Positions 21,917 to 47,206 of a stretch of 64,000 bases of DNA are shown one piece after another. Each line of letters starts with the position of its first letter. Position 1 is the first letter of the stretch. Origin of the DNA: a virus (Duplodnaviria; Heunggongvirae; Uroviricota; Caudoviricetes). Position numbers and translations under genes: made by a program. Location of the stretch: the IMG/VR virus record IMGVR_UViG_2654587772_000002; one strand, written 5' to 3'. Under the pieces are notes generated by a model that ran no database searches, had not been told where the DNA came from, and saw only the letters and a list, made by a program, of their open reading frames with translations.

Positions 21917-23179
21917 ATGAGCACTTCAGCACAAAACCAATCAATCGAAAATGTATCTATCCCTGATGTCCTGAATGCCGGTATCCCGGCCATTATCCAG
22001 AACATCCGGGCCGCGCAACGCCGCGTTAGTTGTGATGACCTCACAGCACGTTTTTTTGATAATGCGGTTCAGTCAGCGGAGATGCTTCACGCACAGCTTA
22101 TTGATGTTTATAACGCAGAAGCTGATAGCCATAACTCCCTGGTAGATGCAGCTGAAAATATGCAGTTGGATCTCGGTCTGAAGGGTAAAGAAATTGAAGA
22201 GCTTCAGCTGCAAATTGAACATTTGAAACGCCAGCAACAGGACGCGATCGACGATGCGACGCATGACGCCAACCAGCGTGCTGATAATGCCGAACGTATA
22301 AGCATTGAGCTGGAAACAAAACTCAATGAAATGACCGCGATGGTTGAACTGCGGAACTCACAGATTTCAACGCTAAAATCTCAATATAAAGAGATCATGA
22401 AACTTGATCCTTTTAACCTTGAGAAACGCTATAACAAAGCTAAAAGCGAGCGACAAGAACTGCGTAAGCAGGTCGCCGACCTTAACCAACAGCTCAAAAA
22501 AACTATTAAAGATGCAAGCGAAGCGCGCGTGGCATTTGCTAATAAAAAAGCAGAGGTTACCGCGCTGGTTAATGAGAATGCCAAATTTGCGACGCTCAAG
22601 AAGGAAATGTATGGCATTACTGAGCGCCGTTTCCCTGCAAGCAAACTTCATCCGACGTTAGGGCAAATCTCCTTCTTCCCGCGCCTCCTGGCTTATGGGA
22701 TCTCATCGCCTAAAGAGTTCAATAACGAGCGTCCTTATATCGTTTCTAAGCTGGACTTTGCTTATCAGTTCTGCTGCGACATGGGCTATGCCATTGATAT
22801 CCGAATCAACGAATGGTTGATGCCAAACTTCCAGCCGTTGGCAATTTTCCGCGAGTTCCAGCCGGAAGGTTGGGTAGAGTTCTTCCATGAATTGATCTGT
22901 AAAGAGATGGAAAGCCGCCGCCCGGAATTGGTCCGTCGAGTTGAGTGGGCGCAAGAGGTTATGTTGGCAGATGCAGAGCTGCCGTTCGAACCGGAATTCA
23001 TTGATGATCTGGCAACTAAAGGGTTGCATACCCTGTTTGATGTGGTTACCCGCCGTCATGAGCAGTTGGTTGTCGAATTGGGTTTAGAGGAAACAGCGGC
23101 AAGAAGACTTCTCGATGTTTGCTATGCACGTAGCGATGCATGGGAAAAAGAGAACGGCGGCACTATTTACGTTCGCTGA
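21917..23179 (+). CDS. Coiled-coil protein, function unknown
   Basis: Long heptad-like charged region 100-230. Confidence 0.45.
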   Translation: MSTSAQNQSIENVSIPDVLNAGIPAIIQNIRAAQRRVSCDDLTARFFDNAVQSAEMLHAQLIDVYNAEADSHNSLVDAAENMQLDLGLKGKEIEELQLQIEHLKRQQQDAIDDATHDANQRADNAERISIELETKLNEMTAMVELRNSQISTLKSQYKEIMKLDPFNLEKRYNKAKSERQELRKQVADLNQQLKKTIKDASEARVAFANKKAEVTALVNENAKFATLKKEMYGITERRFPASKLHPTLGQISFFPRLLAYGISSPKEFNNERPYIVSKLDFAYQFCCDMGYAIDIRINEWLMPNFQPLAIFREFQPEGWVEFFHELICKEMESRRPELVRRVEWAQEVMLADAELPFEPEFIDDLATKGLHTLFDVVTRRHEQLVVELGLEETAARRLLDVCYARSDAWEKENGGTIYVR

Positions 23180-23203
23180 TAGTTACAGTGTCACTTTTAA
23201 TGC

Positions 23204-23232
23204 TGGTGGAGTGCGCCCACCAGCATTTTTTT
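23204..23232 (+). terminator. Rho-independent terminator (GCTGGTGG...CCACCAGC + T-run)
   Basis: Stem-loop followed by TTTTTTT. Confidence 0.6.
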
Positions 23233-23251
23233 CGTCCAATGAGGAGGGCAT

Positions 23252-23758
23252 TTGAGTATTTTCAATAAACACGCACACCAGGAACGTCCGTATATCGTCA
23301 TAGTCGATATTGATGGAACAATATCAGAGGCAACTGAAGACAGACTGCATTTGCTTCCGCCACCAGGTAAAGGTGCATTAACAAAGGACTGGAACGAGTT
23401 TAATCTCGCCTGTGACACTGATACTCCCATAACTCCAGTTATTGATATTGTGCGCCAGTTATTTAACGTTTACACGGTCTGGTTTGTAACCGGGCGCTGT
23501 GAGATCGCAAGGGATAAAACACGAGCCTGGCTGCGGAAGTACGTAACAAACGGGGCTGAGCCTTTGCTATCTATGCGTCCTGCCACCGATGACAGAAGTG
23601 ACGGCCCAGCAAAGATTGATCTCCTTAAGAAAATTGGTCTAAGTAAAATCGCGTTCGCGCTGGAAGATAAGATTGAAGTGGCGCGTGTTTTCAGGAGGCA
23701 CGGCGTGCTTACGTTAATGGTCAGGGAGTATGAAAATGCGCTTCTTCATCAGCAATAA
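23252..23758 (+). CDS. HAD-superfamily-like hydrolase (DIDGT motif); TTG start after GAGGAGG
   Basis: IVIVDIDGTIS motif I. Confidence 0.45.
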   Translation: MSIFNKHAHQERPYIVIVDIDGTISEATEDRLHLLPPPGKGALTKDWNEFNLACDTDTPITPVIDIVRQLFNVYTVWFVTGRCEIARDKTRAWLRKYVTNGAEPLLSMRPATDDRSDGPAKIDLLKKIGLSKIAFALEDKIEVARVFRRHGVLTLMVREYENALLHQQ

Positions 23759-23774
23759 TTACTCTAATAAATCT
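23758..23774 (+). promoter_or_regulatory. C1-operator-like site ATTACTCTAATAAATCT (15/17)
   Basis: Consensus match. Confidence 0.45.
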
Positions 23775-23856
23775 TGATTTTTAAAACAGAGAAAGTGAAA
23801 ATAAAAACTTGCCGCAAGGCGCGGCATGTATCCAATCAATCACAGGAGCTGAAAAT

Positions 23857-23943
23857 ATGAACACGGCATTCAAAATCATTATGGCCGCGATCTATTTCTG
23901 GCTGTTCTCTATCACTTTTGGCGGCATCGTCGCGCATGGGTAA
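23857..23943 (+). CDS. 28-aa hydrophobic peptide (MNTAFKIIMAAIYFWLFSITFGGIVAHG)
   Basis: AGGAG SD 8 nt upstream; followed by hairpin. Confidence 0.35.
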   Translation: MNTAFKIIMAAIYFWLFSITFGGIVAHG

Positions 23944-23966
23944 GGGGAGTATATTAGCCATTTGGA

Positions 23967-24001
23967 ACCCCACGGTCTCTTGCGGGTTTAATTAAGAACC
24001 C
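23967..24001. terminator. Hairpin (CTTGCGGGTT-TAATTAA-GAACCCGCAAG) between convergent genes
   Basis: 10-bp stem; no strong T-run. Confidence 0.4.
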
Positions 24002-24022
24002 GCAAGAAAAACACGAATTGGG

Positions 24023-27000
24023 CTATATTTTTCCGCCTACGCCTTTAAACTTCTCAATAAACGAGACGATTTTCTGGAAAACTGCCTGTTTTTTCGTTTT
24101 ATATTGCGGATTTAACGGACTAAGTTTTGGTAATGTTTCGTTTAATTCTGTGCCATTTTCGGTGGCGTATTCGCGTTTTAAAGACGTGCGAATATAGCGT
24201 TTTGCTGCATCTTCATTGAGATTTTCTTCTTTTATCAATGCTTCTGCTTCACGTTGCTGTTCGCGTTGAGCAAACGTAAAGAATGCGTCAATGATGCTGG
24301 CTTTGTCCGGTAAATCATCCAGGTTCGTTTGCTGAATAAAATCGACCACCAGGCCCTCTTTAGCACGGTTCCCTAGGCTTGAACGAATTAAGCGTTTGAC
24401 CTCTTCGATCATTTCGCCCTTGCCTTTATTTTGTCTGTTGTGTTCGAAAATAAGTCCAAGGATATAATCCAGGTTTATTTCCTGAGACTTCAGCAAATCG
24501 ACCTCAAAAACTACGTCATCCCAGTCAGTGGTTGATTTCTCTTTTTTCTCAGCTTCTTTCTCACGGCGCTGCCAGTCGCGAATATCGTTATAGGCAGAAC
24601 GATAATCCTGAATCTTGCGATCAGCAGGGAGACGAATTGTTTGCAATTCAGCGAACTTTTCATCATCCACATAATGTTCTGCTTTGAATTTTTCTACCGC
24701 AACAGGATCGCTAAGATCGATTTGTTGCAGGGCTTTTAGCGTGGCAAATTCATCATAGTTTTGCAGGATGTTCTCGGCACGCAGGTATTCGCCAAACAGT
24801 TTAACGAAGTCTTTCTTCTCTTTTTCACTTTCAATACTGGTAGGGTCAGGGAACCGTTGTTCCAGTTCTGAAACTACTGTCATGAAGCCGCGTTTAGCTT
24901 CACCTGTAGCAGCATCAGTAAAGCCTTCCATATACTCTGTATAACTCTTTTCTAACACCACATTTTTGGTGTTTTTGTCACCAAACAGCGTTATGGCATC
25001 AATAGTTGAGCGTTCCAGATCCCGGAAAGTGACGATATTACCGAAGGTTTTAGTTGCATCATAAATACGGTTGGTGCGGGAAAATGCCTGCATCAGGCCG
25101 TGAAAACGCAAGTTTTTATCGACGAATAGCGTGTTCAATGTTGGAGCATCGAAGCCGGTTAAAAACATCCCCACGACAATTAGCAGATCGATATCCTGAT
25201 TTTTAACCCGCTGGGCTAAATCACGATAGTAGTTCTGAAAACCGTTACTGTCGGTGCTAAAGTTAGTTTTAAAATGGCTGTTATATTCACGAATTGCAGC
25301 GTCCAGAAACTCTTTAGCACTGCTGTCCATTGCGCTGGTATCAAAAGTTTCATCGGAAATTTCACCAATGGCATTTTGTTCTTCATTGGCGGCAAAGGAG
25401 AAGATTGTCGCAATACGCAGCGGTTTATAGGTAGCCGATTTATTAGCGGCTTCTTCTTGTAACCGTTTAAACGTCGCATAATAGGCTTTCGCGGCATCCA
25501 CGCTGCTCACTGCCAACATAGCATTAAAACCTTTTGAGCCAGGGAAGGTACGGTGAGTTTTCTGGCGGAAATTATTCAGAATATATTGCGTGATTTCCTG
25601 AATACGCATAGGATGAAGAAACGCCTGCTGATTTTCAGCCGCACTTAGTTTTTTCTCGTCAGTTTCTGTCTCTAAAGACTTAAACTGTGGCCGCACATCG
25701 TTGTAGTCCACCTTGAATTTGAGCACTTTTTCGTCACGAATCGCATCGGTAATTACATACGAATGCAATTCACGACCAAATACGCTGGCGGTTGTTTCTG
25801 AGCCTAAGGCGTTTTCCGGGAAAATAGGGGTGCCGGTAAAACCAAACTGATAATAGCGTTTGAATTTCTTCTTCAGGTTTTTCTGCGCTTCTCCAAACTG
25901 GCTGCGGTGGCATTCATCAAATATGAACACTACTTGCTGATTATATACAGGCAGGTCGCTTTCTGCTTTCATCAGGTTATTGAGTTTCTGAATAGTAGTG
26001 ACGATAATTTTGTTATCGTCCTTATCCAGATTTCGTTTAAGGCCTGCGGTATTTTCCGAGCCGTTGACGCTGTCTGGCGAAAAACGCTGATATTCCTTCA
26101 TGGTCTGGTAATCGAGGTCTTTTCTGTCGACCACAAAGAAGACTTTATCAATAAAGTCCAGCTCTGTTGCCAGACGCGCGGCTTTAAAGCTGGTAAGGGT
26201 TTTACCAGAACCGGTAGTGTGCCAGATAAAGCCACCGCTTTCGGGGTTAGACCAGTTTTTCGCTTTATAGGAGCTGTTGATTTTCCATAAGATTCGTTCG
26301 GTGGCGGCAATCTGGTACGGTCGCATCACCAGTAGCGTCTGACTACTGTCAAAAACGCTGTAGTTCACCAGAACATTCAGCAGAGTATGTTTCTGGAAAA
26401 AGGTAGCGGTAAAGTCTTTGAGGTCTTTAATCAGCGTGTTGTCTGATTTCGCCCAGTTCATGGTGAAGTCAAAACTGTTTTTATCGCGCTTTGTCGTGTT
26501 GGCAAAATAACGGGTATCGGTGCCGTTAGAAATGACAAACAGTTGCAGATACTTAAACAGGGAATTTTCGCTGTTAAAACTCTCTTTACTGTAACGATGT
26601 ATCTGGTTGAAAGCCTCACGAATCGCCACCCCGCGTTTTTTTAGTTCGATTTGCACCAGCGGTAAACCATTAACCAGGATCGTGACGTCATAACGGTTAG
26701 CATGAGAACCCGTCTGTTCAAACTGCTGGATAATCTGCACCTTATTGCGCATGAGATTCTTTTTATCTATCAAATAGATGTTCTCAAGACGCTCGTCATC
26801 AAAAATAAAGTCGCAAATATAGTCGATATGGATTTTACGGGTCTTATCCAGAATGCCATCACTCGGGTTGTCCAGATACTGCTCCGTGAAACGCCGCCAT
26901 TCGCTGTCATTAAACACCACACCATTGAGGTTCTGAAGCTGTTCCCGAACGTTGGCCAGCATCGCCGACTGTGATTTTACGGGTATAAATTCATAGCCCT

Positions 27001-27139
27001 GATTTCGCAGGTCCTGAATCAGTTCCCGTTCCAGGTCCGATTCACTCTGATAGCTGTCGCCTGTTTGCTCAGCTTTGATGTACTTATCAAGAACGATAAA
27101 GTTATTGGATTCAGCAATGGTGTGTGTCTGATGAGTCAT
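24023..27139 (-). CDS. hsdR: Type I restriction enzyme R subunit
   Basis: SF2 helicase motifs (TGSGKT Walker A, DECHR), 1038 aa, operon with hsdM/hsdS. Confidence 0.9.
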
Positions 27140-27261
27140 AGCGCATCCTTTGTGCCGTCTGGCAAGGGCCGGAAGGGGGTTAAGGGTGACTTCCAGCGTG
27201 TAAAAAAATAGCCTATATACTGACCGGGTGTTAAGGTGGCCCGGTCGGTAGCAATGGTCAA

Positions 27262-28473
27262 TTAATTACTGACAGTTTCAGGTTTCGGGAAACTGAACAG
27301 TAAATCACGGTAGTACTCGTATTGTTTCTGGCGCAACTCGATTTCACGCGGGAGACCTTCGGTGATGGAGTTGGTCAGGGTGTCGAACTTATCGAGGATA
27401 AAGGCAATTTTTTGTTGCTCATCAATCGATGGTAAAGGAATAGATAAACCATCAATGTTATTTGCTTTAAGATAACCTTGCCCTGAATTGTTTTTTACTG
27501 ACTTAAAGTAAAATTTCATTCTTGGTGAGTCGAAGAAATGCAGAAAATATCTAGGGTGAAGTAATTCCTCATTCAACCTGATTAGGTACATGTTTTGACC
27601 GTAAAAATCAGGATCGAGACATTTTACTCGAGCAATCTCACCAATAGTACCAATCATGCTTATAAGAAAGTCACCTTTCAAGATCGGTCTATTTTTGGAG
27701 ATGCTCAAAAAATCGTCCCGGGAAATATGCTTAACTCTTTCAAAATCGATGTTCCCACCACTAATATTCTTTGAAGTGACATATGGAATTTCACCATTAT
27801 CATCAAACTTCGGAGTTGCGGGCATAATCCAAAATTTATCTACTAGCACCTCCTCCAAAGTCTTCCACTCAACCTCACCCTCTTTAAAACTCAACAACTG
27901 GTCGCGATAATAGTTGTACTGTTTTTTACGCATGTTAAGCTCAGCGGTAAGCTCAGCGGTAAGTGCAGTAAATTTATCCAGAATCCGAACGATTTCAGAC
28001 TGGATGGCAAGGGATTTTTCCGGATTATCCGGGCAGGGGATTGGGATTTTTTTTTGAGAATAATTACTAATCCATTGGCGTTTATGGTCTCCCTCTGCGA
28101 ATTCACTTGGTAATGTATTGAGCCAATAGTAAACATATTTCAGTAAGGTTTTATTATTATCACATGATGTAACCATTTTCATGGCCGATGATTTTGCCTT
28201 AAAGTCAAAATCCACCCATTTATTAGCGGTGGTGAAATCATCAAAAATTATTACAGGTGCCTTTGATGCCTGGTAAATACCATGAGTCTCATTTGTGTAT
28301 CCAAGAATAAATGTTTTTCCGGCAGTAAGAACCGGTATGGTATATGTGTCGTGATAATCTTTTGCTTTTACCAAATACTTTGTTGGCTGTTCATATTTGG
28401 TTATTTCCCCCAATGGCAACCACTCAACTTCAACCCCATCCAGCAATTTTTCCAGATAACTCAACTCGCTCAT
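27262..28473 (-). CDS. hsdS: Type I R-M specificity subunit
   Basis: 403 aa, two target-recognition-domain halves, overlaps hsdM stop (ATGA). Confidence 0.85.
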
Positions 28474-30032
28474 TTCTGCACCTCGCAGCCTTCAATTTCA
28501 GCCACAATCGCATCAATATCTTTACGCAACTGGTCGATTTTGCTGACCGTGGTTTTCAGCTCAGCATTTAGCTCAGCAATATCGATAGTTTCGCGGTTAT
28601 CTTTCACTTCTACATAGCTGCTCACTGACAGGTTATAGTCATTCGCGACAACGGCCTCAAACGCGACAGATTTTGCCAGATGGGCAACATCTTCCTTGCT
28701 GGAAAATACCTGCATAATTTTTTCGATATGGGCATCGGTCAGGATGTTGTTGTTAGTCTCTTTTTTGAACAGTTCGCTGGCGTCAATAAACTGAACTTTG
28801 GTATCCGTTTTATGTTTAGACAGCACCAGAATATTTACGGCAATGGTGGTGCCAAAGAACAGGTTCGGTGCCAGTGAAATCACGGTTTCGACATAGTTAT
28901 TGTCAACCAGATACTGACGGATTTTCTGCTCCGCTCCGCCACGGTAAAAAATGCCCGGGAAGCAGACAATCGCAGCACGACCTTTGGCAGAAAGATAGTT
29001 CAGCGCATGTAATACAAACGCAAAGTCAGCTTTGGATTTGGGGGCCAGAACGCCAGCCGGGGCAAAACGTTCATCGTTAATCAGCGTCGGGTCATCGCTG
29101 CCAATCCATTTCACCGAATACGGCGGGTTAGAAACGATGGCATCAAACGGTTTTTCATCTCTGAAGTGCGGCTCAGTCAGTGTATTACCCAGCTTGATAT
29201 CAAACTTGTCGTAGTTGATGTTGTGCAAAAACATGTTCATACGCGCCAGGTTATAGGTCGTATGGTTGATCTCCTGACCAAAAAAGCCTTCTTCGATGAT
29301 ATGGTCATCAAACTGTTTTTTAGCCTGCAACAACAGCGAACCGGAACCTGCTGCCGGGTCGTAGATTTTGTTAACGTGGGTCTGGCCGTGCATTGCCAGT
29401 TGTGCAATCAGCTTAGAGACGTGCTGCGGTGTAAAGAACTCGCCGCCGGACTTACCGGCATTCGCCGCATAGTTAGAAATCAGGAACTCATAGGCATCAC
29501 CGAACAGGTCAATCTGATGTTCGTTGAAGTCACCAAGGTTTAACCCTTCAACCCCTTTCAGAACCGCAGCCAGGCGGGCATTTTTATCCTTAACGGTGTT
29601 ACCCAGGCGGTTACTGGTGGTATCGAAATCAGCAAACAAACCTTTGATGTCAGCTTCTGAAGGATAACCGTAAGCAGAACTTTCGATAGCAACGAAGATG
29701 CTGTTTAAATCTGCATTCAGTCTGTCATTGGTATTTGCTTTCGCCGCTACGTTGCAGAAAAGCTGACTTGGGTAGATGAAGTAGCCTTTGGTTTTGATGG
29801 CATCGTCTTTAATGTCATCAGTAATTACGCTGTCATCCAGTTTCGCATAACAGATACTGCCATCACCGGCTTCAATATAGCTGGAAAAATTTTCGCTGAT
29901 AAAACGGTAGAAAAGTGCGCCCAGAACGTATTGCTTAAAATCCCATCCATCGACCGAACCCCTGACATCGTTAGCAATTTGCCAGATTTGACGATGAAGC
30001 TCTGCACGTTGTTGAATACTTGTCATTTTCAT
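28470..30032 (-). CDS. hsdM: Type I R-M N6-adenine methyltransferase subunit
   Basis: [10 protein letters not shown] (motif I) and NPPY (motif IV). Confidence 0.9.
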
Positions 30033-30164
30033 CCACTTATTTCAGGCTTATGTAATTGGATGTGATTCTACAACAACTTGGTGGCTTTAACAGTTCGGAC
30101 ATTAGGCTATGAATGACCTGCCTAGAGTTTTGTTAAGCCGCAAAGTGCTGGCGCTTTATGCCTG

Positions 30165-30205
30165 TGAAGTTTATAATTGTGTACACATAACGAGTACACG
30201 AGGTG
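30165..30205 (+). promoter_or_regulatory. phd-doc promoter/operator (TATAAT -10 then GTGTACAC / GAGTACAC palindromic half-sites)
   Basis: TTATAATTGTGTACACATAACGAGTACACGAGGTG directly upstream of phd. Confidence 0.6.
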
Positions 30206-30208
30206 TTT

Positions 30209-30430
30209 ATGCAATCCATTAACTTCCGTACCGCGCGCGGCAACCTTTCTGAAGTGCTCAACAATGTTGAGGCCGGGGAAGAGGTTGAAATCACCCGCAG
30301 AGGCCGTGAGCCAGCAGTAATTGTCAGCAAGGCTACTTTCGAAGCCTACAAAAAAGCGGCGCTGGATGCTGAATTTGCATCCCTGTTTGACACCCTGGAC
30401 TCCACCAACAAGGAACTGGTTAACCGATAA
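30209..30430 (+). CDS. phd: Antitoxin Phd
   Basis: 73 aa [39 protein letters not shown]...; TAATG overlap with doc. Confidence 0.9.
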
Positions 30431-30810
30431 TGAGGCATATATCACCGGAAGAACTTATTGCGCTTCATGATGCGAATATAAGCCGCTACGGCGGCCTGCC
30501 TGGCATGTCAGATCCGGGCAGGGCAGAGGCCATTATCGGGAGAGTTCAGGCCAGAGTTGCCTACGAAGAGATCACCGACCTTTTCGAAGTCTCCGCCACC
30601 TACCTGGTGGCTACAGCGAGAGGGCATATATTCAATGATGCCAATAAGCGTACCGCGCTAAACAGTGCGCTGCTATTTCTACGCCGTAACGGGGTGCAGG
30701 TATTTGATTCACCTGAACTGGCAGACCTTACCGTAGGCGCTGCGACTGGCGAGATATCTGTATCTTCTGTCGCCGACTCGTTACGTAGATTGTATGGTTC
30801 TGCGGAGTAG
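30430..30810 (+). CDS. doc: Toxin Doc (Fic-fold)
   Basis: 126 aa, HIFNDANKR motif. Confidence 0.9.
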
Positions 30811-38508: not shown

Positions 38509-38574
38509 TGTCAAACAACTATGAAAAACAATCCAGTTTTTGGCTGGTGGAGTGGGATTTTTCTCTCAAAATTT

Positions 38575-38591
38575 ATTGCTCTAATAATTCT
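38575..38591 (+). promoter_or_regulatory. C1 operator ATTGCTCTAATAATTCT (15/17)
   Basis: Inverted relative to 38492 site. Confidence 0.5.
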
Positions 38592-38634
38592 TGATTTTTA
38601 TGCGCAGCTGGACGTAAACTCCTCTTCAGACCTA

Positions 38635-38668
38635 ATAACTTCGTATAGCATACATTATACGAAGTTAT
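38635..38668 (+). other. loxP recombination site
   Basis: Exact ATAACTTCGTATA-GCATACAT-TATACGAAGTTAT. Confidence 0.98.
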
Positions 38669-38740
38669 ATTAAGGGTTATTGAATATGATCAATTTACCT
38701 GTAAATCCATACAGTTCAATACCTTGGCAGGTCAAATAGT

Positions 38741-38828
38741 GATCACTTGATCATTTGATCAAGGTTGCGCTACGTAAAATCTGTGAAAAATTGGCGGTGT
38801 TAGTCCTACAGATTTCGCGTAGCGCACT
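38741..38828 (+). promoter_or_regulatory. cre upstream regulatory region: three tandem GATC sites (TGATCACTTGATCATTTGATCA) and an 18-bp imperfect inverted repeat
   Basis: GATC triplet 38741-38765; inverted repeat GCGCTACGTAAAATCTGT / ACAGATTTCGCGTAGCGC. Confidence 0.5.
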
Positions 38829-38857
38829 TAGCACCACCAATCAATCAGAGGTGAAAA

Positions 38858-39079
38858 ATGGGATATTCAACTGCTAAAGTGTCCACTCATCTTGAGCTTG
38901 AGAAAAACCGTGGTTACTGGCGGGCAAAAGGGTTTGATCGTGATAGTTGCCAACTGTCATTATCGCGCGGTGAAGAAAAAATAGAACGCACGCGCGGTCG
39001 CTGGCGTTTCTATGACGAGAACCATAAACAGGTAAAGGCAGAGCCGATCCTGTACACTTTACTTAAAACCATTATCTGA
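38858..39079 (+). CDS. Small basic ORF (73 aa) immediately upstream of cre
   Basis: SD GAGGTG; coding status uncertain. Confidence 0.3.
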   Translation: MGYSTAKVSTHLELEKNRGYWRAKGFDRDSCQLSLSRGEEKIERTRGRWRFYDENHKQVKAEPILYTLLKTII

Positions 39080-39086
39080 GTGTTAA

Positions 39087-40118
39087 ATGTCCAATTTACT
39101 GACCGTACACCAAAATTTGCCTGCATTACCGGTCGATGCAACGAGTGATGAGGTTCGCAAGAATCTGATGGACATGTTCAGGGATCGCCAGGCGTTTTCT
39201 GAGCATACTTGGAAAATGCTTCTGTCCGTTTGCCGGTCGTGGGCGGCATGGTGCAAGTTGAATAACCGGAAGTGGTTTCCCGCAGAACCTGAAGATGTTC
39301 GCGATTATCTTCTATATCTTCAGGCGCGCGGTCTGGCAGTGAAAACTATCCAGCAACATTTGGGCCAGCTAAATATGCTTCATCGTCGGTCCGGGCTGCC
39401 ACGACCAAGTGACAGCAATGCTGTTTCACTGGTCATGCGACGGATCCGAAAAGAAAACGTTGATGCCGGTGAGCGTGCAAAACAGGCGCTGGCGTTCGAA
39501 CGCACTGATTTCGACCAGGTTCGTTCACTCATGGAAAATAGCGATCGCTGCCAGGATATACGTAATCTGGCATTTCTGGGGATTGCTTATAACACCCTGT
39601 TACGTATAGCCGAAATTTCCAGGATCAGAGTTAAAGATATCTCACGTACTGACGGTGGGAGAATGTTAATCCATATTGGCAGAACGAAAACGCTGGTTAG
39701 CACCGCTGGTGTAGAGAAGGCACTTAGTCTGGGGGTAACTAAACTGGTTGAGCGATGGATTTCTGTCTCTGGTGTGGCTGATGATCCGAATAACTACTTG
39801 TTTTGCCGTGTCAGAAAAAATGGTGTTGCCGCGCCATCTGCCACCAGCCAGCTATCAACTCGCGCCCTGGAAGGGATTTTTGAAGCAACTCACCGATTGA
39901 TTTACGGGGCTAAGGATGACTCTGGCCAGAGGTACCTGGCCTGGTCTGGACACAGTGCCCGTGTCGGAGCCGCGCGAGATATGGCCCGCGCCGGAGTTTC
40001 AATACCGGAGATCATGCAAGCTGGTGGCTGGACCAACGTAAATATTGTCATGAACTATATCCGTAACCTGGATAGTGAAACAGGGGCAATGGTGCGCCTG
40101 CTGGAAGATGGCGATTAG
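39087..40118 (+). CDS. cre: Cre tyrosine recombinase
   Basis: 343-aa sequence MSNLLTVHQNLPALPVDATSDEVRKNLMDMFRDRQAFSEHTWKMLLSVCRSWAAWCKL... matches Cre. Confidence 0.98.
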   Translation: MSNLLTVHQNLPALPVDATSDEVRKNLMDMFRDRQAFSEHTWKMLLSVCRSWAAWCKLNNRKWFPAEPEDVRDYLLYLQARGLAVKTIQQHLGQLNMLHRRSGLPRPSDSNAVSLVMRRIRKENVDAGERAKQALAFERTDFDQVRSLMENSDRCQDIRNLAFLGIAYNTLLRIAEISRIRVKDISRTDGGRMLIHIGRTKTLVSTAGVEKALSLGVTKLVERWISVSGVADDPNNYLFCRVRKNGVAAPSATSQLSTRALEGIFEATHRLIYGAKDDSGQRYLAWSGHSARVGAARDMARAGVSIPEIMQAGGWTNVNIVMNYIRNLDSETGAMVRLLEDGD

Positions 40119-40168
40119 CCATTAACGCGTAAATGATTGTTCTAATTCTTTGATATTTATGGTGACAT

Positions 40169-40624: not shown

Positions 40625-40828
40625 TTATAATTGAGCCGTGGCGTTAGTCAACTACGAAGACGTGGCCATTACCTACTTAACCAGTTCCGCCAGGGCAGCA
40701 GAGTAGGTTTCATCTCGGATGTACCATGCCTGCATGTTTTCCAGAGAAGCCCGCGAGGTTCCCGGACAGGACTCTGCCATTGCGATAGATTAAATGCAAT
40801 AACCTAAAAGCGATAACGTGGTGGAAAA

Positions 40829-41468
40829 ATGTTCATCAGAGCTTATTTAAGGGCATCAACGGAAGATCAGTTTGCCGATCGGGCAAAAGAGATGCTGGGG
40901 CAGTTTGTTCAGGAGCGGGGACATAAAATAGCCAGTTACTACCGGGAGAACATAAGCGGTACAAAACTCGACCGCCGGAACTGGGACGCTTACTGATGGA
41001 CAGCCACCGCAATGATATTTTACTGGTCGAGCAAATTGACCGCCTGACCCGTCTGAGTAACAGTGACTGGATTACGCTGAAAAAGCAGATAGAACAACAC
41101 GAACTGCGGATTGTCGCCTGGATGTATCCACCTCATGGCAGGCGCTGTCAGATAAAGACCCTTCGCAGGCTGACCCAATCACCCGCGCCGTGATAACCGC
41201 CATCAATAACATGCTTATCGACCTGATGGCCGCGATGTCGCATAAGGACTGGCTGAGCCGTCGCCAACGGCAACAACAGGGAATTGAACGGGCTCATACG
41301 CTGGGTAAATACCGGGGATAACAGGCCGATCAGGAACGGCATCAGAAAGTCCTGTACTACTGGCAGGTCAAGAAACTAAGTATCCATGAAACGGCAGATG
41401 CGACAGGGTACAGTCCTTCACAGATATGCCGCATTCAAGCCCTTTATAGAGAGCCTGAATCGGAATAA
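40829..41468 (+). pseudogene. Serine recombinase (resolvase/invertase family) pseudogene with at least 3 frame disruptions
   Basis: MFIRAYLRASTEDQ... / DRPELGRLLMDSHRNDILLVEQIDRLTRL / ...HETADATGYSPSQICRI (HTH) in three different frames. Confidence 0.6.
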
Positions 41469-41574
41469 AAAGTAGCCCAGGCGTTAATGGATTACCTTTC
41501 CAGGCTAAGCTCATTGCTCCTGTCAGATACGCAGCCCTGCCTGTAATAATACAGACTGGGCAATGTGTTGCCAC

Positions 41575-41976
41575 TCAGGCTGACAACTGTCGGAGGATAT
41601 CCGCTGTATTATAATGAGCCCGTTTTTCTATATATTTCCCGTCTTTCAGAGTGATCATAAACATCAGAGAAAAGCGCACTTTCCTGCCGCTGGCAGGATG
41701 CCCAAGGAATTCACGGGTCTGCACGCCTTCAAAGATAAGATAGCAGGCGACTTTATCGTCTCTGGCAAAGATTTCGTGGATACGCATTGTAAATCCCGGA
41801 AAAGCATCCATATGGCCTTTTTCCTGTACGATAAACTGCTCACTGTTCAGCGGTGTATCCACCTGAGAATAGAATTTAAAATCCGGATGGCAGAGGTTTT
41901 TCACCTCATCATATTTATTTTCTTCAATCAGACGATAAAACTTTTTAACCGTTTTGATATTTTCTTAAACAGACAT
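41575..41976 (-). pseudogene. SnoaL-like small protein with in-frame TAA at codon 4 (ATG TCT GTT TAA)
   Basis: Natural ATG at 41976 followed by stop at 41965-41967, frame then open to 41575; NTF2/SnoaL-like composition. Confidence 0.45.
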
Positions 41977-41984
41977 ATTGCACC

Positions 41985-42974
41985 TCATTTTTCAGTTTCT
42001 TTACCTGCCGGAATATTGCCTTCCGGCGTTCCGTTAAATGTTTTTCGCCATTCACTGGGACTGACTCCCATCCGCTGCCGGAATATCTGCCGGAAAGTAA
42101 TGGTGGACTGAAAGCCTGCCAGTTCGGCAACCCGCTCCACTGCAATATCTGTACTTTCCAGCAGTTCCTGACTCCGCCGGAGACGCTCTGTGGTGATCCA
42201 CTCCCAGACCGTCATTCCTGTGGCCGAATGAAAATGGCGTGTAAGCGTTCTTCGGCTCATGGAGGCTAAATGGGCCAGAGTGTCAATATCATGTGGTAAT
42301 CCCAGATTTGCGGACAGGTATTCCAGCAGCTGGTTTATGCGGTTATCGGACGTACTTTTGGGAATAAGCAGTTGCCGGTACTGTGCCTGTCCGCCTTCCC
42401 GGTAAGGAGGAGCAACCATCCGGCGGGCTATTTGATTAGCCGTATATCTGCCCAGGCGTTGCCGGATCACATGGAGACAACAGTCCAGTGCTGCGGCTGT
42501 ACCGGCTGAGGTGATAATCCGCTCGTCCTCAACATAAAGCACGTTCACGTCCAGATGAACCGCCGGGAAAAGCATCTGGAAATCCCGTTCAGCCTCCCAG
42601 TGCGTGGCCGCCCGTTTACCATCCAGCAGACCGGTGTAAGCCAGAACAAAACTCCCCAGGCACAGGCCCACCACCTGAGCTCCATTTTTCCAGGCTGCAA
42701 CCAGGGCACTGAGCAGAGTTTCAGAAGGCCTTTCATGGATGTGTTTCCAGAAAGGAATAATAACGATATCGGCCTCTGCCAGTGCATCAAGCCCGTATTC
42801 TGCCCTCATCGCCGTACCTTCAGCAGACCAGATAAGCCCGGGCTCTTCCGCACATACCCGGCGGCTGAAGAGGGCCTTCCCTTCCAGTATCTCCCCGAAC
42901 AGGATTAATGGAACGGAGACATGAAATGTACTGAACCCTTCGGTGATCACTATAGCGACAGTGATGGTGGACAT
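41985..42974 (-). CDS. GlxA-family transcriptional regulator (DJ-1/PfpI domain + AraC HTH)
   Basis: N-terminal class-I glutamine amidotransferase-like region, C-terminal AraC-type HTH. Confidence 0.75.
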   Translation of the reverse strand: MSTITVAIVITEGFSTFHVSVPLILFGEILEGKALFSRRVCAEEPGLIWSAEGTAMRAEYGLDALAEADIVIIPFWKHIHERPSETLLSALVAAWKNGAQVVGLCLGSFVLAYTGLLDGKRAATHWEAERDFQMLFPAVHLDVNVLYVEDERIITSAGTAAALDCCLHVIRQRLGRYTANQIARRMVAPPYREGGQAQYRQLLIPKSTSDNRINQLLEYLSANLGLPHDIDTLAHLASMSRRTLTRHFHSATGMTVWEWITTERLRRSQELLESTDIAVERVAELAGFQSTITFRQIFRQRMGVSPSEWRKTFNGTPEGNIPAGKETEK

Positions 42975-42989
42975 GCCATGGCCTCCGGG

Positions 42990-43766
42990 TTAAATCGTAA
43001 CTGATTCACCATCAGCAGGAGCGACAACTGACGCCTGGATCTGGTTATCGCGGGCATATTCCAGCAGTTCCTGACGGGTCAGCAGACAGTGGTTTACGGC
43101 CTCCATGTGCGTTGCCACAATCAGTGCCTCTGGTACGATACGATGGGCTTTCAGGACATCTTCCCTGCCGAAAATAATGGGGCCGAATCCGAGAACATGC
43201 GCCCAGCCCGTATTCATAATAACGACGCCAGGATTGAACCGACGTAAATTATCCTCTACAGCCTTGATCCAGATGGTATCCCCAACCAGATAGAGCGTTT
43301 TTTCGGACGGATGCTGGAAGACCACCCCACAGGCATCCCCAAGAATTGCTGCGAGTTGCGGGTTAGCATAGGCTTCGTCCGAACCATGCTGACAAACGGT
43401 TTTAATAAGTGAAATTTCGCCAAATGTGCTTTTGTCAGACAGAATAACAAGGTTGCTGAAGCCCTGGGAACGCAGGATCTTTTCATCATGTTCATTCTGA
43501 ACATAAATCAGTTTATCTTTCGGGATGTGCGCAACAGCCGCTTCATCCCAGTGGTCAGGGTGTGTGTGGGTGACAATAATGGCATCCACATCCAGCAGTA
43601 CATCAAGGTCAAAAGGCAGCTCAGTCATCGGGATGCGGATATCTGACCGGGCCGTTCCTTCGAATCCCGGATAGGCTTCTTTTTTCGCAAGCATCGGATC
43701 GACAAGAAATTTTTTACCAGCGTAAGAAATGAGTTGTGTGGCGTTACGTACCTGGATGATCTTCAT
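42990..43766 (-). CDS. MBL-fold metallo-hydrolase
   Basis: THTHPDHWDE (HxHxDH) motif. Confidence 0.75.
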   Translation of the reverse strand: MKIIQVRNATQLISYAGKKFLVDPMLAKKEAYPGFEGTARSDIRIPMTELPFDLDVLLDVDAIIVTHTHPDHWDEAAVAHIPKDKLIYVQNEHDEKILRSQGFSNLVILSDKSTFGEISLIKTVCQHGSDEAYANPQLAAILGDACGVVFQHPSEKTLYLVGDTIWIKAVEDNLRRFNPGVVIMNTGWAHVLGFGPIIFGREDVLKAHRIVPEALIVATHMEAVNHCLLTRQELLEYARDNQIQASVVAPADGESVTI

Positions 43767-43981
43767 TTTAGCAAGTCCTGTATTGGTTAATAACCATCAG
43801 AGCCATATCATGATGGCCTAATGTGATAATTATGATTAAATCAGGCCTGCCTGCCACTGAAATAATGCCATATTTGGATGATATCAGGCCATTCTTCTGG
43901 CTCTCAGGTTTCAGGAATATGTCTGCTGAAAGCGGGTACAGATCTGACGCATTGAAGGGAAGTATCGTCCTTTAAGGCTTA

Positions 43982-44371
43982 TTGATGTCAGCCAGTACAA
44001 AAAATCATCTTAACGTACAATATCTTCCGTTTCCCAAACGGAGCCCACCAACGACGGAGGAACGGCGCATCGCCAATGCTCTTGGCGCTCTCCCCTGCAT
44101 TGCCTGCTATATGCCTGGAGTAATATCTAATGAGGTGTCTCTGAACCATATCGCCGGTCGTACCGCGCCGGGTTGTCACAAAAAGCAATTGCCACTTTGT
44201 AGATGGCACCACCAGCATGCAGCACCGGCTGAAGTAAGAGAAAAATACCCCTGGCTGGTCCCTGTTCATGCCGATGGTGTGGTTGGAGGCAAGAAAGAAT
44301 TCACCTTGCTGAACAAGTCAGAGATGGAGTTGCTGGCTGACGCCTATGAAATGGCAAACGTCATGCACTAA
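43982..44371 (+). CDS. Cys/His-rich small protein (possible HNH/Ref-like nuclease core)
   Basis: CIACY...NHIAG...GCHKK..PLCRWHHQH pattern. Confidence 0.35.
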   Translation: MMSASTKNHLNVQYLPFPKRSPPTTEERRIANALGALPCIACYMPGVISNEVSLNHIAGRTAPGCHKKQLPLCRWHHQHAAPAEVREKYPWLVPVHADGVVGGKKEFTLLNKSEMELLADAYEMANVMH

Positions 44372-44560: not shown

Positions 44561-45205
44561 ATGGATAAGAAAATATGCGTTGTTTCGATGAGCGTCGGTA
44601 AACCGGCGTCAATGACTGCTGCATGGATCAACAACGAGCTGATAATGGCTGAGCGGACCAGCTACCCTGAACGCCGCCGCGATATGGAACTCCAGCTGCT
44701 GCGCGAATTGCGAGAAAAAGAGGAAAAGGGTTTTATCGTGCTGGTGGAAGAGGAAAACAGCTTTATTACCGGTCGAGTTGGCCAGCGTGTAAGGTTGCGC
44801 GATCCCTTCATGAACGGCAGGCCGGTACTAATTGAAGCAATGCAGATTTACAAGGAGCTGGAACGCCAGAAAGCGATCAAGTTACCGCGCAAGGAATCCG
44901 GCAAATACATCCTCCACCAAAGCATCTTCGATTCCGAACACGATAAAAAAGGCGATGAGTTTTTCAACATCAACTGGAGCGAAATAACGACAGAGCATGT
45001 TCTGACGTTGTTATGCTGCTTCGCAACAGAATACAACAACGTGGTAAGCGCAGACTACATCAGGACAATGACAGACACCGTTACTAAACAAGACAACGAA
45101 TATTCACCATATGAGCCATTTGTAAATATGATAAAAGCATTTTATCGGATGGAGCTCGCTAAAGTTCCTCAAGGTAAATTAACAGGTAAGGATAACATCT
45201 TTTAA
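44561..45205 (+). CDS. Hypothetical protein (214 aa)
   Basis: AGGGGG SD, ATG 44561. Confidence 0.45.
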   Translation: MDKKICVVSMSVGKPASMTAAWINNELIMAERTSYPERRRDMELQLLRELREKEEKGFIVLVEEENSFITGRVGQRVRLRDPFMNGRPVLIEAMQIYKELERQKAIKLPRKESGKYILHQSIFDSEHDKKGDEFFNINWSEITTEHVLTLLCCFATEYNNVVSADYIRTMTDTVTKQDNEYSPYEPFVNMIKAFYRMELAKVPQGKLTGKDNIF

Positions 45206-45258
45206 GCACAGTAATGAGGTGCTTAGATGTTAATATCAATATCCTAACTCTCTGCATC

Positions 45259-45948
45259 TCATAAATCTGATAGCCACTTACTATCTATGGACTCAATCTC
45301 CGTCAGCGGAATTGATGGGAAAAAATATCCCTGAGCGCCCCATAGCCCTATTCCTTTTGATAACTTATGACAATCAATGTTTTCGACGCCTTCAGCGATG
45401 ATATTCGGACATAACTTTTTTAAATTGCTAATAATGACATCAAAATGAGGCTTAATCATATGCTCTTGAAAAAATGACTTATCAAGTTTTATTGCATGGT
45501 ATTTATTTTTAATTAATGCTTTCATGGTGGCGTTACCACTTCCAAAATCATCAAGCCAAACATAGTCTGTCAAAGTCAGGAGAAAGGGTATAACGTAATC
45601 CTCATCGCTTAAATCAGGGTAGTTTTCTGATATCTCAAGAACTATAAATTTATTGTTTTTAATTAACTCTTGAGTTTGTTTATTACTGTATATATATATA
45701 CATGTATCATAATCTACATTAATAGAACATAGTATATTATGGCGTTCAAAAAAACACTTGTATTTCATTATTGTGTTAAGTTGTGATTTAAGTAAATTAA
45801 TCTTCATCTTATTGGTAAACATACCCAATACTCTTTGAGTAGGAAGAGCGACACCATCTTTGGAGCGAAATCTGCTTAACACTTCTACTGCAATCAACTT
45901 GTTCGTGCTCGTAGAAATGATTGGTTCTGCAATGTAGATAACTTCCAT
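45259..45948 (-). CDS. Stand-alone EAL-domain protein (c-di-GMP phosphodiesterase-like), AT-rich gene
   Basis: EVL(SRF), ENYP, DDFGSG, KLDKSF, EGVE motifs in EAL order. Confidence 0.75.
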   Translation of the reverse strand: MEVIYIAEPIISTSTNKLIAVEVLSRFRSKDGVALPTQRVLGMFTNKMKINLLKSQLNTIMKYKCFFERHNILCSINVDYDTCIYIYSNKQTQELIKNNKFIVLEISENYPDLSDEDYVIPFLLTLTDYVWLDDFGSGNATMKALIKNKYHAIKLDKSFFQEHMIKPHFDVIISNLKKLCPNIIAEGVENIDCHKLSKGIGLWGAQGYFFPSIPLTEIESIDSKWLSDL

Positions 45949-46184
45949 ATCCCCACCCTCAAGTTTTAAATTGCTTGATTTTGCTCAGATAACGAGCCCC
46001 CTATATTTACAAGAGTTACACTCTACTTTTGTAGATTAAATGTCAATTTATTTGTTTGTGATAATATTGAAAAATATCAATTAAAACAATCAAAAAATGT
46101 GACATAAATCAATAATTTTATTTTTACACAACTTCTTGATTTCTGAGCCTAGCTATCTCTATTCTTATTCAAAGCCTCTTTAGA

Positions 46185-46919
46185 ATGGTGGTGGCCATGT
46201 CAGCAGTTTGTTACTTCATACTCATAAAGAAACCTATAAGCTTTCAATTTCTTAAGGATTTCTTAATATTAAATTATGGTGATGTGTTGTTGCTTAAGCA
46301 TTCTGAGCATGAATGCTTAAAAATCTATTCAGACAAATATATAGAATTCGAACTCAATGATAATACCGTAAGAAACTATTTATCATGCAACAACAACCAT
46401 GGAAACCAATCGCTGGATAAGTGTCCGCATTTGCTAAAAAAGTCTTTTGCCTATCCTGATTTATTAATCAGGATGATCGATAATATAAGCGATCAAAATC
46501 ATATCCATTCTGATTTTAGGGAGGCAGTAACTTTTTCATTACTCTCAATTTTTAATGATGTTGATAACTTTAGAGCATTTCTTACGTCTGGTATGCCCAC
46601 TTTCTCAGGGAAAGTGCGCAGCATATTTCTTTCAGATGTATCTAAACACTGGAAACTAAGAGACCTAACCGATTATCTCTACATGAGTGAAAGCTTAATA
46701 AAGAAAAAACTATTATTGGAAAACACCTCCTTCAGTAAGTTATTACTTGATACACGGATGGCTTTTGCTATTAAATTACTAAAGCAAAATCATCCAGTCA
46801 AACAAGTATCAGAAAGCTGTGGCTTTAGTAGTACATCGTACTTTGTGTGCCTGTTCAGGCAATATTATAATTGCACGCCACGTGAATATGCAAAACATCA
46901 ATTATTATCTGGAAAATAA
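46185..46919 (+). CDS. AraC-family regulator of the AppY/EnvY/GadX/Rns type, AT-rich gene
   Basis: C-terminal HTH closely resembles E. coli AppY (WKLRDLTDYLYMSESLIKKKL...TRMAFAIKLL...SSTSYFVCLFRQYY). Confidence 0.75.
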   Translation: MVVAMSAVCYFILIKKPISFQFLKDFLILNYGDVLLLKHSEHECLKIYSDKYIEFELNDNTVRNYLSCNNNHGNQSLDKCPHLLKKSFAYPDLLIRMIDNISDQNHIHSDFREAVTFSLLSIFNDVDNFRAFLTSGMPTFSGKVRSIFLSDVSKHWKLRDLTDYLYMSESLIKKKLLLENTSFSKLLLDTRMAFAIKLLKQNHPVKQVSESCGFSSTSYFVCLFRQYYNCTPREYAKHQLLSGK

Positions 46920-46957
46920 GATGCATTTATCTCCCAGATAATATTGTAATATTAAAC

Positions 46958-47206
46958 TCAGTCAGCATTTAGTAGCAGAGCATTATCTATGATGATCTGC
47001 TCCCATTCTTCGAATGCCCGGTCACGGACGCCCTGGGGAACACTGTTTGTTTTGAAATCAACGACTGTCCGCCATTTCCCGTCCGGACGGTACATGCGCA
47101 GAGCTTTACTTCCCCCTTCCCTACGCACCTCAACGTTATGCTTGTCAGCAAACTCTTGTAATGCTCGTAGCGTCCCATGCTTTACTGTGTAGTATCGCTT
47201 TTTCAA
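46958..47206 (-). CDS. Small protein at lxc position (immT-like)
   Basis: 82-aa ORF downstream of ulx/darB on same strand. Confidence 0.5.
   Translation of the reverse strand: MKKRYYTVKHGTLRALQEFADKHNVEVRREGGSKALRMYRPDGKWRTVVDFKTNSVPQGVRDRAFEEWEQIIIDNALLLNAD

Follow-up and report, generated by a model that had tools for sequence, protein, structure and literature searches.

The window analysed here is a stretch of 64,000 nucleotides (nt) from a P1-like phage-plasmid (IMG/VR virus record IMGVR_UViG_2654587772_000002), and it carries three adjacent genes of a Type I restriction-modification (R-M) system on its minus strand. Type I enzymes place N6-methyladenine on a bipartite target and cleave DNA distant from the site in an ATP-dependent reaction. 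In the direction of transcription, the genes are hsdM for the N6-adenine methyltransferase subunit (28470–30032, 520 amino acids [aa]), hsdS for the specificity subunit (27262–28473, 403 aa) and hsdR for the restriction/translocase subunit (24023–27139, 1038 aa). An earlier note, made from the DNA letters alone, had proposed a complete operon of three overlapping genes at this locus. The six-frame list of open reading frames (ORFs) reproduces the three genes exactly, with full-length family matches and no internal stop codon in any of them. The overlap is confined to hsdM and hsdS, which share 4 nt such that the hsdS start lies over the hsdM stop, but hsdS and hsdR are separated by a 122-nt non-coding spacer (27140–27261), so that the term "one operon" is imprecise for hsdR.

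Family and motif searches agree on the identity of all three subunits. HsdM matches the Pfam families N6_Mtase (2.4e-121) and HsdM_N over its full length and the NCBIfam model TIGR00497 (hsdM) at 650 bits, with a cut-off of 243. HsdS contains the Pfam Methylase_S domain twice. HsdR matches HSDR_N, SWI2_SNF2/ResIII, T1R_D3-like and EcoR124_C (1.9e-71) over its full length, and TIGR00348 (hsdR) at 762 bits, with a cut-off of 285. The PADLOC models Type I MTase, Specificity and REase are matched across the three adjacent ORFs. The hallmark motifs listed in the earlier note are all present in the translations: HsdM has the S-adenosylmethionine-binding motif I (DPAAGSG at 225) and the catalytic motif IV (NPPY at 302), and HsdR has the superfamily-2 helicase motifs TGSGKT at 309 and DECH(R) at 408, together with a PD-(D/E)xK nuclease composed of D151, E165, K167 and a QxxxY motif in the form QIHRY at 179. 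The three genes thus make up a complete and apparently intact Type I R-M system.

Comparison with proteins of known structure places this system in the Type IC (EcoR124) family. HsdM differs from the EcoR124 M protein (PDB 7bst_D) at 9 of 520 aa (~98% identity) and HsdR differs from EcoR124I HsdR (PDB 2w00_A) at 10 of the ~970 aligned residues displayed (~99% identity), and both alignments run end to end without gaps. The gene order hsdM-hsdS-hsdR also matches the Type IC layout. Because of these identities, the EcoR124_C domain of HsdR, and the two target recognition domains (TRDs) and TAEL repeats of HsdS, the predicted system is assigned to Type IC as a near-identical relative of the prototype EcoR124I. 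Given the close match in HsdM, HsdR and the conserved parts of HsdS, its subunits would be expected to complement those of EcoR124I.

The principal departure from EcoR124I lies in HsdS. Alignment to EcoR124 HsdS (PDB 7bst_A) delimits four minus-strand regions: TRD1 (~aa 1–150; 28024–28473), a central conserved region (~aa 151–204), TRD2 (~aa 205–345; 27439–27861) and a C-terminal conserved region (aa 346–403). Over aa 1–204 only 2 positions differ; aa 205–345 diverge, and near-identity resumes in the C-terminal conserved helix. As the EcoR124I specificity (GAA-N6-RTCG) requires both EcoR124I TRDs, the divergence of TRD2 indicates a different specificity allele rather than EcoR124I itself. A perfect 12-bp tandem repeat of 2.3 copies (27936–27963, minus strand), detected by TRF and confirmed by inspection and motif search, encodes TAEL-TAEL in the central region, and HsdS contains exactly two TAEL repeats, at aa 172 and 176 (aa 172–179). 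In this family, two TAEL repeats specify the N6 spacer of EcoR124I and three specify the N7 spacer of EcoR124II, and TRDs behave as exchangeable modules (PMC3874165). By sequence, HsdS appears to be a natural domain-swap mosaic, in which the EcoR124I TRD1 and two TAEL repeats are joined to a different and rare TRD2, and it illustrates how specificity alleles arise through recognition-domain exchange. Because TRD1 is that of EcoR124I (GAA), the two TAEL repeats correspond to a 6-bp spacer and TRD2 is divergent, the predicted target is GAA-N6-X, where X is the half-site (3–5 bp) read by TRD2. By analogy with the EcoR124 alleles, unequal crossing-over between copies of the 12-bp repeat could switch the spacer of this allele from N6 to N7.

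This HsdS allele (WP_025210456, with the near-identical WP_023157127 and WP_247165177) is uncommon. TRD2 is found at an identity of at least 95% in five PLSDB records, and the next best match by tblastn, from a Vibrio cholerae plasmid, has 64% identity. Among 5426 complete Escherichia coli genomes, the full hsdS allele occurs in 6, and Type IC hsdS-like sequence in 1312. The GAA-N6 motif was not found in the full text of E. coli methylome papers, which yielded only the unrelated motif GAA-N9-TTYG from a Gram-positive isolate. Likewise, no match to the HsdS accessions or to the strain NCTC11129 was obtained in the supplementary material of a pan-methylome paper from 2026.

The hsd genes occupy a discrete cassette within P1-type DNA. 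When the window is compared with the P1 locus by BLASTN, homology extends over 20001–23947 and resumes at 30133, which defines breakpoints at 23947/23948 and 30132/30133 and a cassette of ~6.2 kb (23948–30132, minus strand). In reference P1, this place is taken by the segment from pmgT through humD, as the P1 annotation shows. The earlier note was therefore right that P1 has humD here, and the same hsd operon, whose presence at this position in reference P1 would have refuted the note's claim, is not there. None of the displaced pmgT-humD genes was found elsewhere within the 64-kb window. The G+C content of the cassette is 38–46% and that of the flanks is 45–52%. No direct or inverted repeats were found flanking 23948–30132, and the cassette was rejected as a transposon or integrative unit because such terminal repeats are absent.

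The P1 GenBank annotation ties these breakpoints to other Type IC loci. It records that P1 84263–84482 is 96–98% identical to DNA downstream of EcoDXXI hsdR, that P1 87969–88647, which covers phd-doc, is 96–98% identical to DNA upstream of EcoDXXI hsdM, and that P1 84399–84482 matches DNA downstream of hsdR in R124/3. The limits of these annotated EcoDXXI and R124/3 homologies coincide exactly with the breakpoints seen here. This association of hsd loci with P1 DNA was reported by Tyndall et al. in 1997 (Mol Microbiol 23:729; reference 364 of PMC12707154). The pmgT-humD region is one of eight regions of high variability in P1-like phage-plasmids (PMC9603915), and in a genome-wide CRISPR interference screen, from which upfM was left out, all tested pmgT-humD genes were non-essential for P1 (PMC10695390). 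The displaced P1 genes can thus be dispensed with, as is also seen from the isolation of phages that carry the cassette. Taking gene content, subunit identity and breakpoints together, we hold it very probable that the locus is a functional-looking Type IC R-M system that a P1-like phage-plasmid carries, as accessory cargo, in its variable pmgT-humD slot.

The flanks are of P1 type on both sides, and the placement of the genes between a HAD-like gene and phd-doc given in the earlier note is borne out. The left flank (23252–23947, plus strand; P1 annotation and sequence) comprises pap (23252–23758, plus strand; HAD_PNKP Pfam match and P1 annotation), the C1 operator OpmgT/Op88 (23758–23774; operator match ATTACTCTAATAAATCT and P1 annotation), the PpmgT region and a 28-aa hydrophobic ORF. 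This ORF, MNTAFKIIMAAIYFWLFSITFGGIVAHG (23857–23943, plus strand), is preceded by a Shine-Dalgarno-like sequence and gave no match in the family search. It lies just 3' of the C1-repressed PpmgT region, in a flank that is also retained beside hsdR in R124/3, and phage phi456 annotates a 44-aa version of it. The C1-controlled PpmgT faces the 3' end of hsdR, where its transcription would run antisense. On the right, hsdM and phd diverge from a 176-bp intergenic region (30033–30208), the P1-homologous part of which, including Pphd, begins at 30133. The phd-doc addiction module (30209–30810, plus strand), with phd starting at 30209 and Doc at 30430–30810 (Fic/DOC Pfam match), is 98.6% identical to that of P1 and lies immediately upstream of hsdM in divergent orientation.

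The same arrangement is widespread. The region is matched by 1656 PLSDB records, 492 of which cover at least 80% of it. The synteny comparison proposed in the earlier note shows a recurrent cassette, with the pap–hsdR junction in 250 PLSDB records vs 634 that have pmgS–pap, i.e., ~39% of P1-like plasmids. In the complete E. coli genomes, the left junction (pap–hsdR) is present in 214 of 5426 and the right junction (hsdM–phd) in 646 of 5426. These junctions recur at 95–100% identity in closed circular IncY plasmids (~90–120 kb) and in isolated phages. The phages vB_EcoM-673R5 (673R5) and phi456, the plasmid pSvP1, and the IncY plasmids NZ_LT883139 and NZ_CP122909 all have the cassette at the same position with the same flanks; in pSvP1, it has been described as a Type I R-M system in place of pmg genes (PMC6906374). 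The flanks, hsdM and hsdR are common to the window, 673R5 and phi456, but the hsdS TRDs differ. The hsdS allele of the window is also found in NZ_LT883139 and NZ_CP122909 (99.3–99.8% identity). In NZ_CP122909.1 (8827–9997; hsdS allele at 99.3%), hot and humD are still present between hsdM and phd, so the cassette has no fixed right boundary and pmgT-humD was probably replaced in more than one step. Given the P1 annotation, the 1997 study, pSvP1 and this prevalence, the arrangement is already known and the cassette is ordinary cargo; only its HsdS allele is uncommon.

Several observations weigh against reading the locus as a sound and active system, and these concern the provenance of the DNA as well as the state of the genes. 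The E. coli ST2747 record NZ_CP007393.1 matches the window at 99.99% identity, and RefSeq already annotates hsdM, hsdS and hsdR there as a Type I system. This record is an early PacBio assembly (~28x), a "chromosome" of ~14 scaffolds ordered on a reference map (PMC3983296), and RefSeq marks several neighbouring P1 genes in it as frameshifted, indicating imperfect base accuracy. In phi456 (7262–9699), an IS5-family DDE transposase interrupts hsdS, and thus such cassettes can decay; the extra ORFs there were considered as prrC and rejected, as they are this transposase. In 673R5 (4113–10064), hsdR and hsdM are annotated in fragments, which could be real frameshifts or sequencing errors. By consensus scan, promoter-like sites in the region are weak, and their number does not exceed that in shuffled sequence. 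For the TRD2 half-site, the PDB sequence search and tblastn against PLSDB gave no prediction, the closest TRDs of solved structure or characterised specificity being only distant relatives; thus, of the target prediction from TRDs that the earlier note had suggested, the GAA-N6 half was obtained and the TRD2 half was not.

The assembly history of ST2747 raises the question of whether the juxtaposition of hsd and P1 genes is an artefact of ordering scaffolds, and the record also differs from the window in that it is without a 1.6-kb segment around cre (window 38543–40145: lox, cra, cre). Both junctions, however, turn up independently in plasmid and genome records by the hundred, by which misassembly is effectively refuted; we give it next to no credence. 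What is doubtful is the chromosomal placement of the P1-like element in ST2747, because the scaffolds were ordered on a reference map; the element there is probably a plasmid.

The disrupted copies in related P1-like phages also bear on the idea that the locus is silent, decayed or active only as a methyltransferase (M2S1), with HsdR unexpressed or inactive. The consensus scan detects no strong promoter for hsdR or hsdM, and the C1-controlled PpmgT, antisense to the 3' end of hsdR, would fit such a state. Yet the three ORFs are full-length, read through cleanly despite the frameshift-flagged neighbours in ST2747, retain all catalytic residues and are 98–99% identical to those of active EcoR124I. 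In EcoR124I, hsdR has its own promoter, and the spacer before hsdR in the window (27140–27261) fits this Type IC layout; it contains a promoter-like site on the minus strand, TTAACA-18-TATTTT (27234..27205), with 9 of 12 consensus matches, which is a weak candidate for a separate hsdR promoter. Overall, a silent or decayed locus appears improbable, and a functional-looking Type IC system remains the preferred reading.

The remainder of the window is P1-like throughout: phage RCS47 covers 95% of positions 1–21000 at 98% identity, and P1 covers 78% of positions 40000–64000. As the earlier note had indicated, DarB, a virion-packaged anti-restriction protein, is encoded in the same genome (47677–54444, minus strand; 2255 aa with N6_Mtase, SNF2 and Helicase_C domains), and the lxc-ulx-darB region of P1 has 98% identity to the window. 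The family search places cre at 39087–40118. The note was also correct in that unrelated cargo holds the position of P1 res-mod: res-mod is absent, and a 1.9-kb segment (45071–46961) contains other genes, including those for an EAL-domain protein (45259–45948, minus strand) and an AraC-like regulator (46185–46919). In addition, a 3.4-kb insert between c8 and ref (40673–44039) has, among others, genes for a DJ-1/AraC-type regulator and an MBL-fold protein, and resembles an insert that pJIE250-3 and ST2747 carry between c8 and mat (PMC6906374).

P1, too, has Dar alongside an R-M system, the Type III system EcoP1I. The earlier note had regarded the coexistence of a Type I system and Dar proteins as a notable combination, a view that the analysis does not support. 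According to one large survey, the Dar system is present in every P1/D6 phage-plasmid surveyed (bioRxiv 10.1101/2025.09.12.675607), and Dar acts in cis, on virion-packaged DNA only (PMC12707154). Because Dar is reported in all P1/D6 phage-plasmids surveyed, the pairing of Dar with a Type I system is routine; because Dar is cis-acting on packaged DNA, there is no conflict between it and an R-M system resident in the cell. Dar protection has been documented against EcoA and StySA (Type IB) via DarA and Hdf, and against EcoB and EcoK (Type IA) via DarB, Ulx and DdrB (PMC12810830). A published statement on Dar protection against Type IC enzymes was not found in the literature searched.

These features allow a different weighting of the role of the same Type IC system, namely that it serves mainly the maintenance of the plasmid prophage or competition among sibling P1-like elements. 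In one version, hsd would be a second addiction-type module beside phd-doc, with which it is adjacent and divergent, a linkage kept in the 646 complete E. coli genomes that have the right junction. This linkage may reflect shared flank ancestry only, and owing to assembly control, Type IC systems become established in naive cells efficiently (PMC12707154), which is contrary to strong post-segregational killing. In the other version, the system would be a barrier that Dar-protected P1-like phages fail to evade. The documentation of Dar protection for Types IA and IB only is in line with this version, as are the different TRDs in otherwise near-identical P1-like elements, which diversifying selection predicts; but a missing report on Dar and Type IC is not evidence of sensitivity. 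We regard a principal role in maintenance or competition as unlikely, if worth keeping in view, and favour accessory cargo that restricts foreign DNA.

Because the subunits are 98–99% identical, the mechanism of EcoR124I should be transferable to this system. One HsdS and two HsdM would form the M2S1 methyltransferase, which would methylate adenines of the bipartite target, and one or two HsdR would join it to give an ATP-driven translocase and nuclease (R1–2M2S1). By analogy, the enzyme would stay on an unmethylated target, reel in DNA and cut at a distance. In Type IC systems, control of restriction lies in the weak incorporation of a second HsdR and not in ClpXP (PMC12707154; PMC3874165), suggesting that the same step would restrain restriction here upon entry into a naive host. 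In the lysogen, host and prophage DNA would be methylated and unmodified incoming phages and plasmids would be restricted, such that the Type IC system may supply the R-M function lost with EcoP1I res-mod. Homologous recombination in the pap/Op88 and phd-doc flanks probably carries the cassette from one P1-like element to another and also to other plasmids; this is the simplest route because flanking repeats are absent and the flanks are conserved.

Three further, modest possibilities would, if true, give the locus wider interest: a new HsdS specificity, escape of Type IC enzymes from Dar, and antisense damping of HsdR from PpmgT. First, the rare HsdS hybrid (GAA, N6 and an uncharacterised TRD2) would define a specificity without prior description. 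Second, Type IC systems might be common on P1-like elements because virion Dar proteins fail against them, the system being a weapon against rivals and TRD shuffling the trace of an arms race. Third, PpmgT antisense transcription upon induction might damp HsdR and thereby spare fast-replicating, under-methylated phage DNA. These readings are speculative, and we assign them little probability. Otherwise, the locus matters little beyond correct annotation: an EcoP1I Type III system has been swapped for an EcoR124-family Type I system at a known recombination hot spot. In the host strain, the system, with its predicted GAA-N6-X target, is likely to hinder transformation as well as infection by phages.

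Among known systems, the closest is the Type IC prototype, EcoR124I/EcoR124II of plasmids R124 and R124/3. The two share with the window the gene order hsdM-hsdS-hsdR, and EcoR124I is near identical in HsdS TRD1, the central region with two TAEL repeats and the C-terminal conserved helix. The EcoR124 locus also has a P1-like remnant downstream of hsdR, as seen from the P1 annotation and from plasmids that match the window only from 23864 onward. The differences are that the EcoR124I TRD2 reads RTCG, whereas TRD2 here (aa 205–345) is unrelated, and that the carrier there is a conjugative plasmid, whereas here it is a P1-like phage-plasmid.

The Type IC locus EcoDXXI has flanks that match those of this cassette via the P1 annotation, but it differs in its target, TCA-N7-RTTC, and in its three TAEL repeats (PMC3874165); these features are compared by description rather than by direct alignment. 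EcoprrI belongs to the same family and has the anticodon nuclease gene prrC embedded in its hsd locus. In the prr locus, prrC is located between hsdS and hsdR; here, prrC was considered for this gap and rejected, as the gap consists of the 122-nt spacer only. "PrrC (Type I RM)" does appear among the defence systems of P1-like phage-plasmids in the Dar survey cited above (bioRxiv 10.1101/2025.09.12.675607). Finally, EcoP1I res-mod of P1 is likewise a prophage-borne R-M system on a Dar-encoding genome, with presumably the same role of restricting foreign DNA in the lysogen. EcoP1I differs in being a Type III enzyme and in its locus, after cre-c8-ref-mat, which in the window holds unrelated genes.

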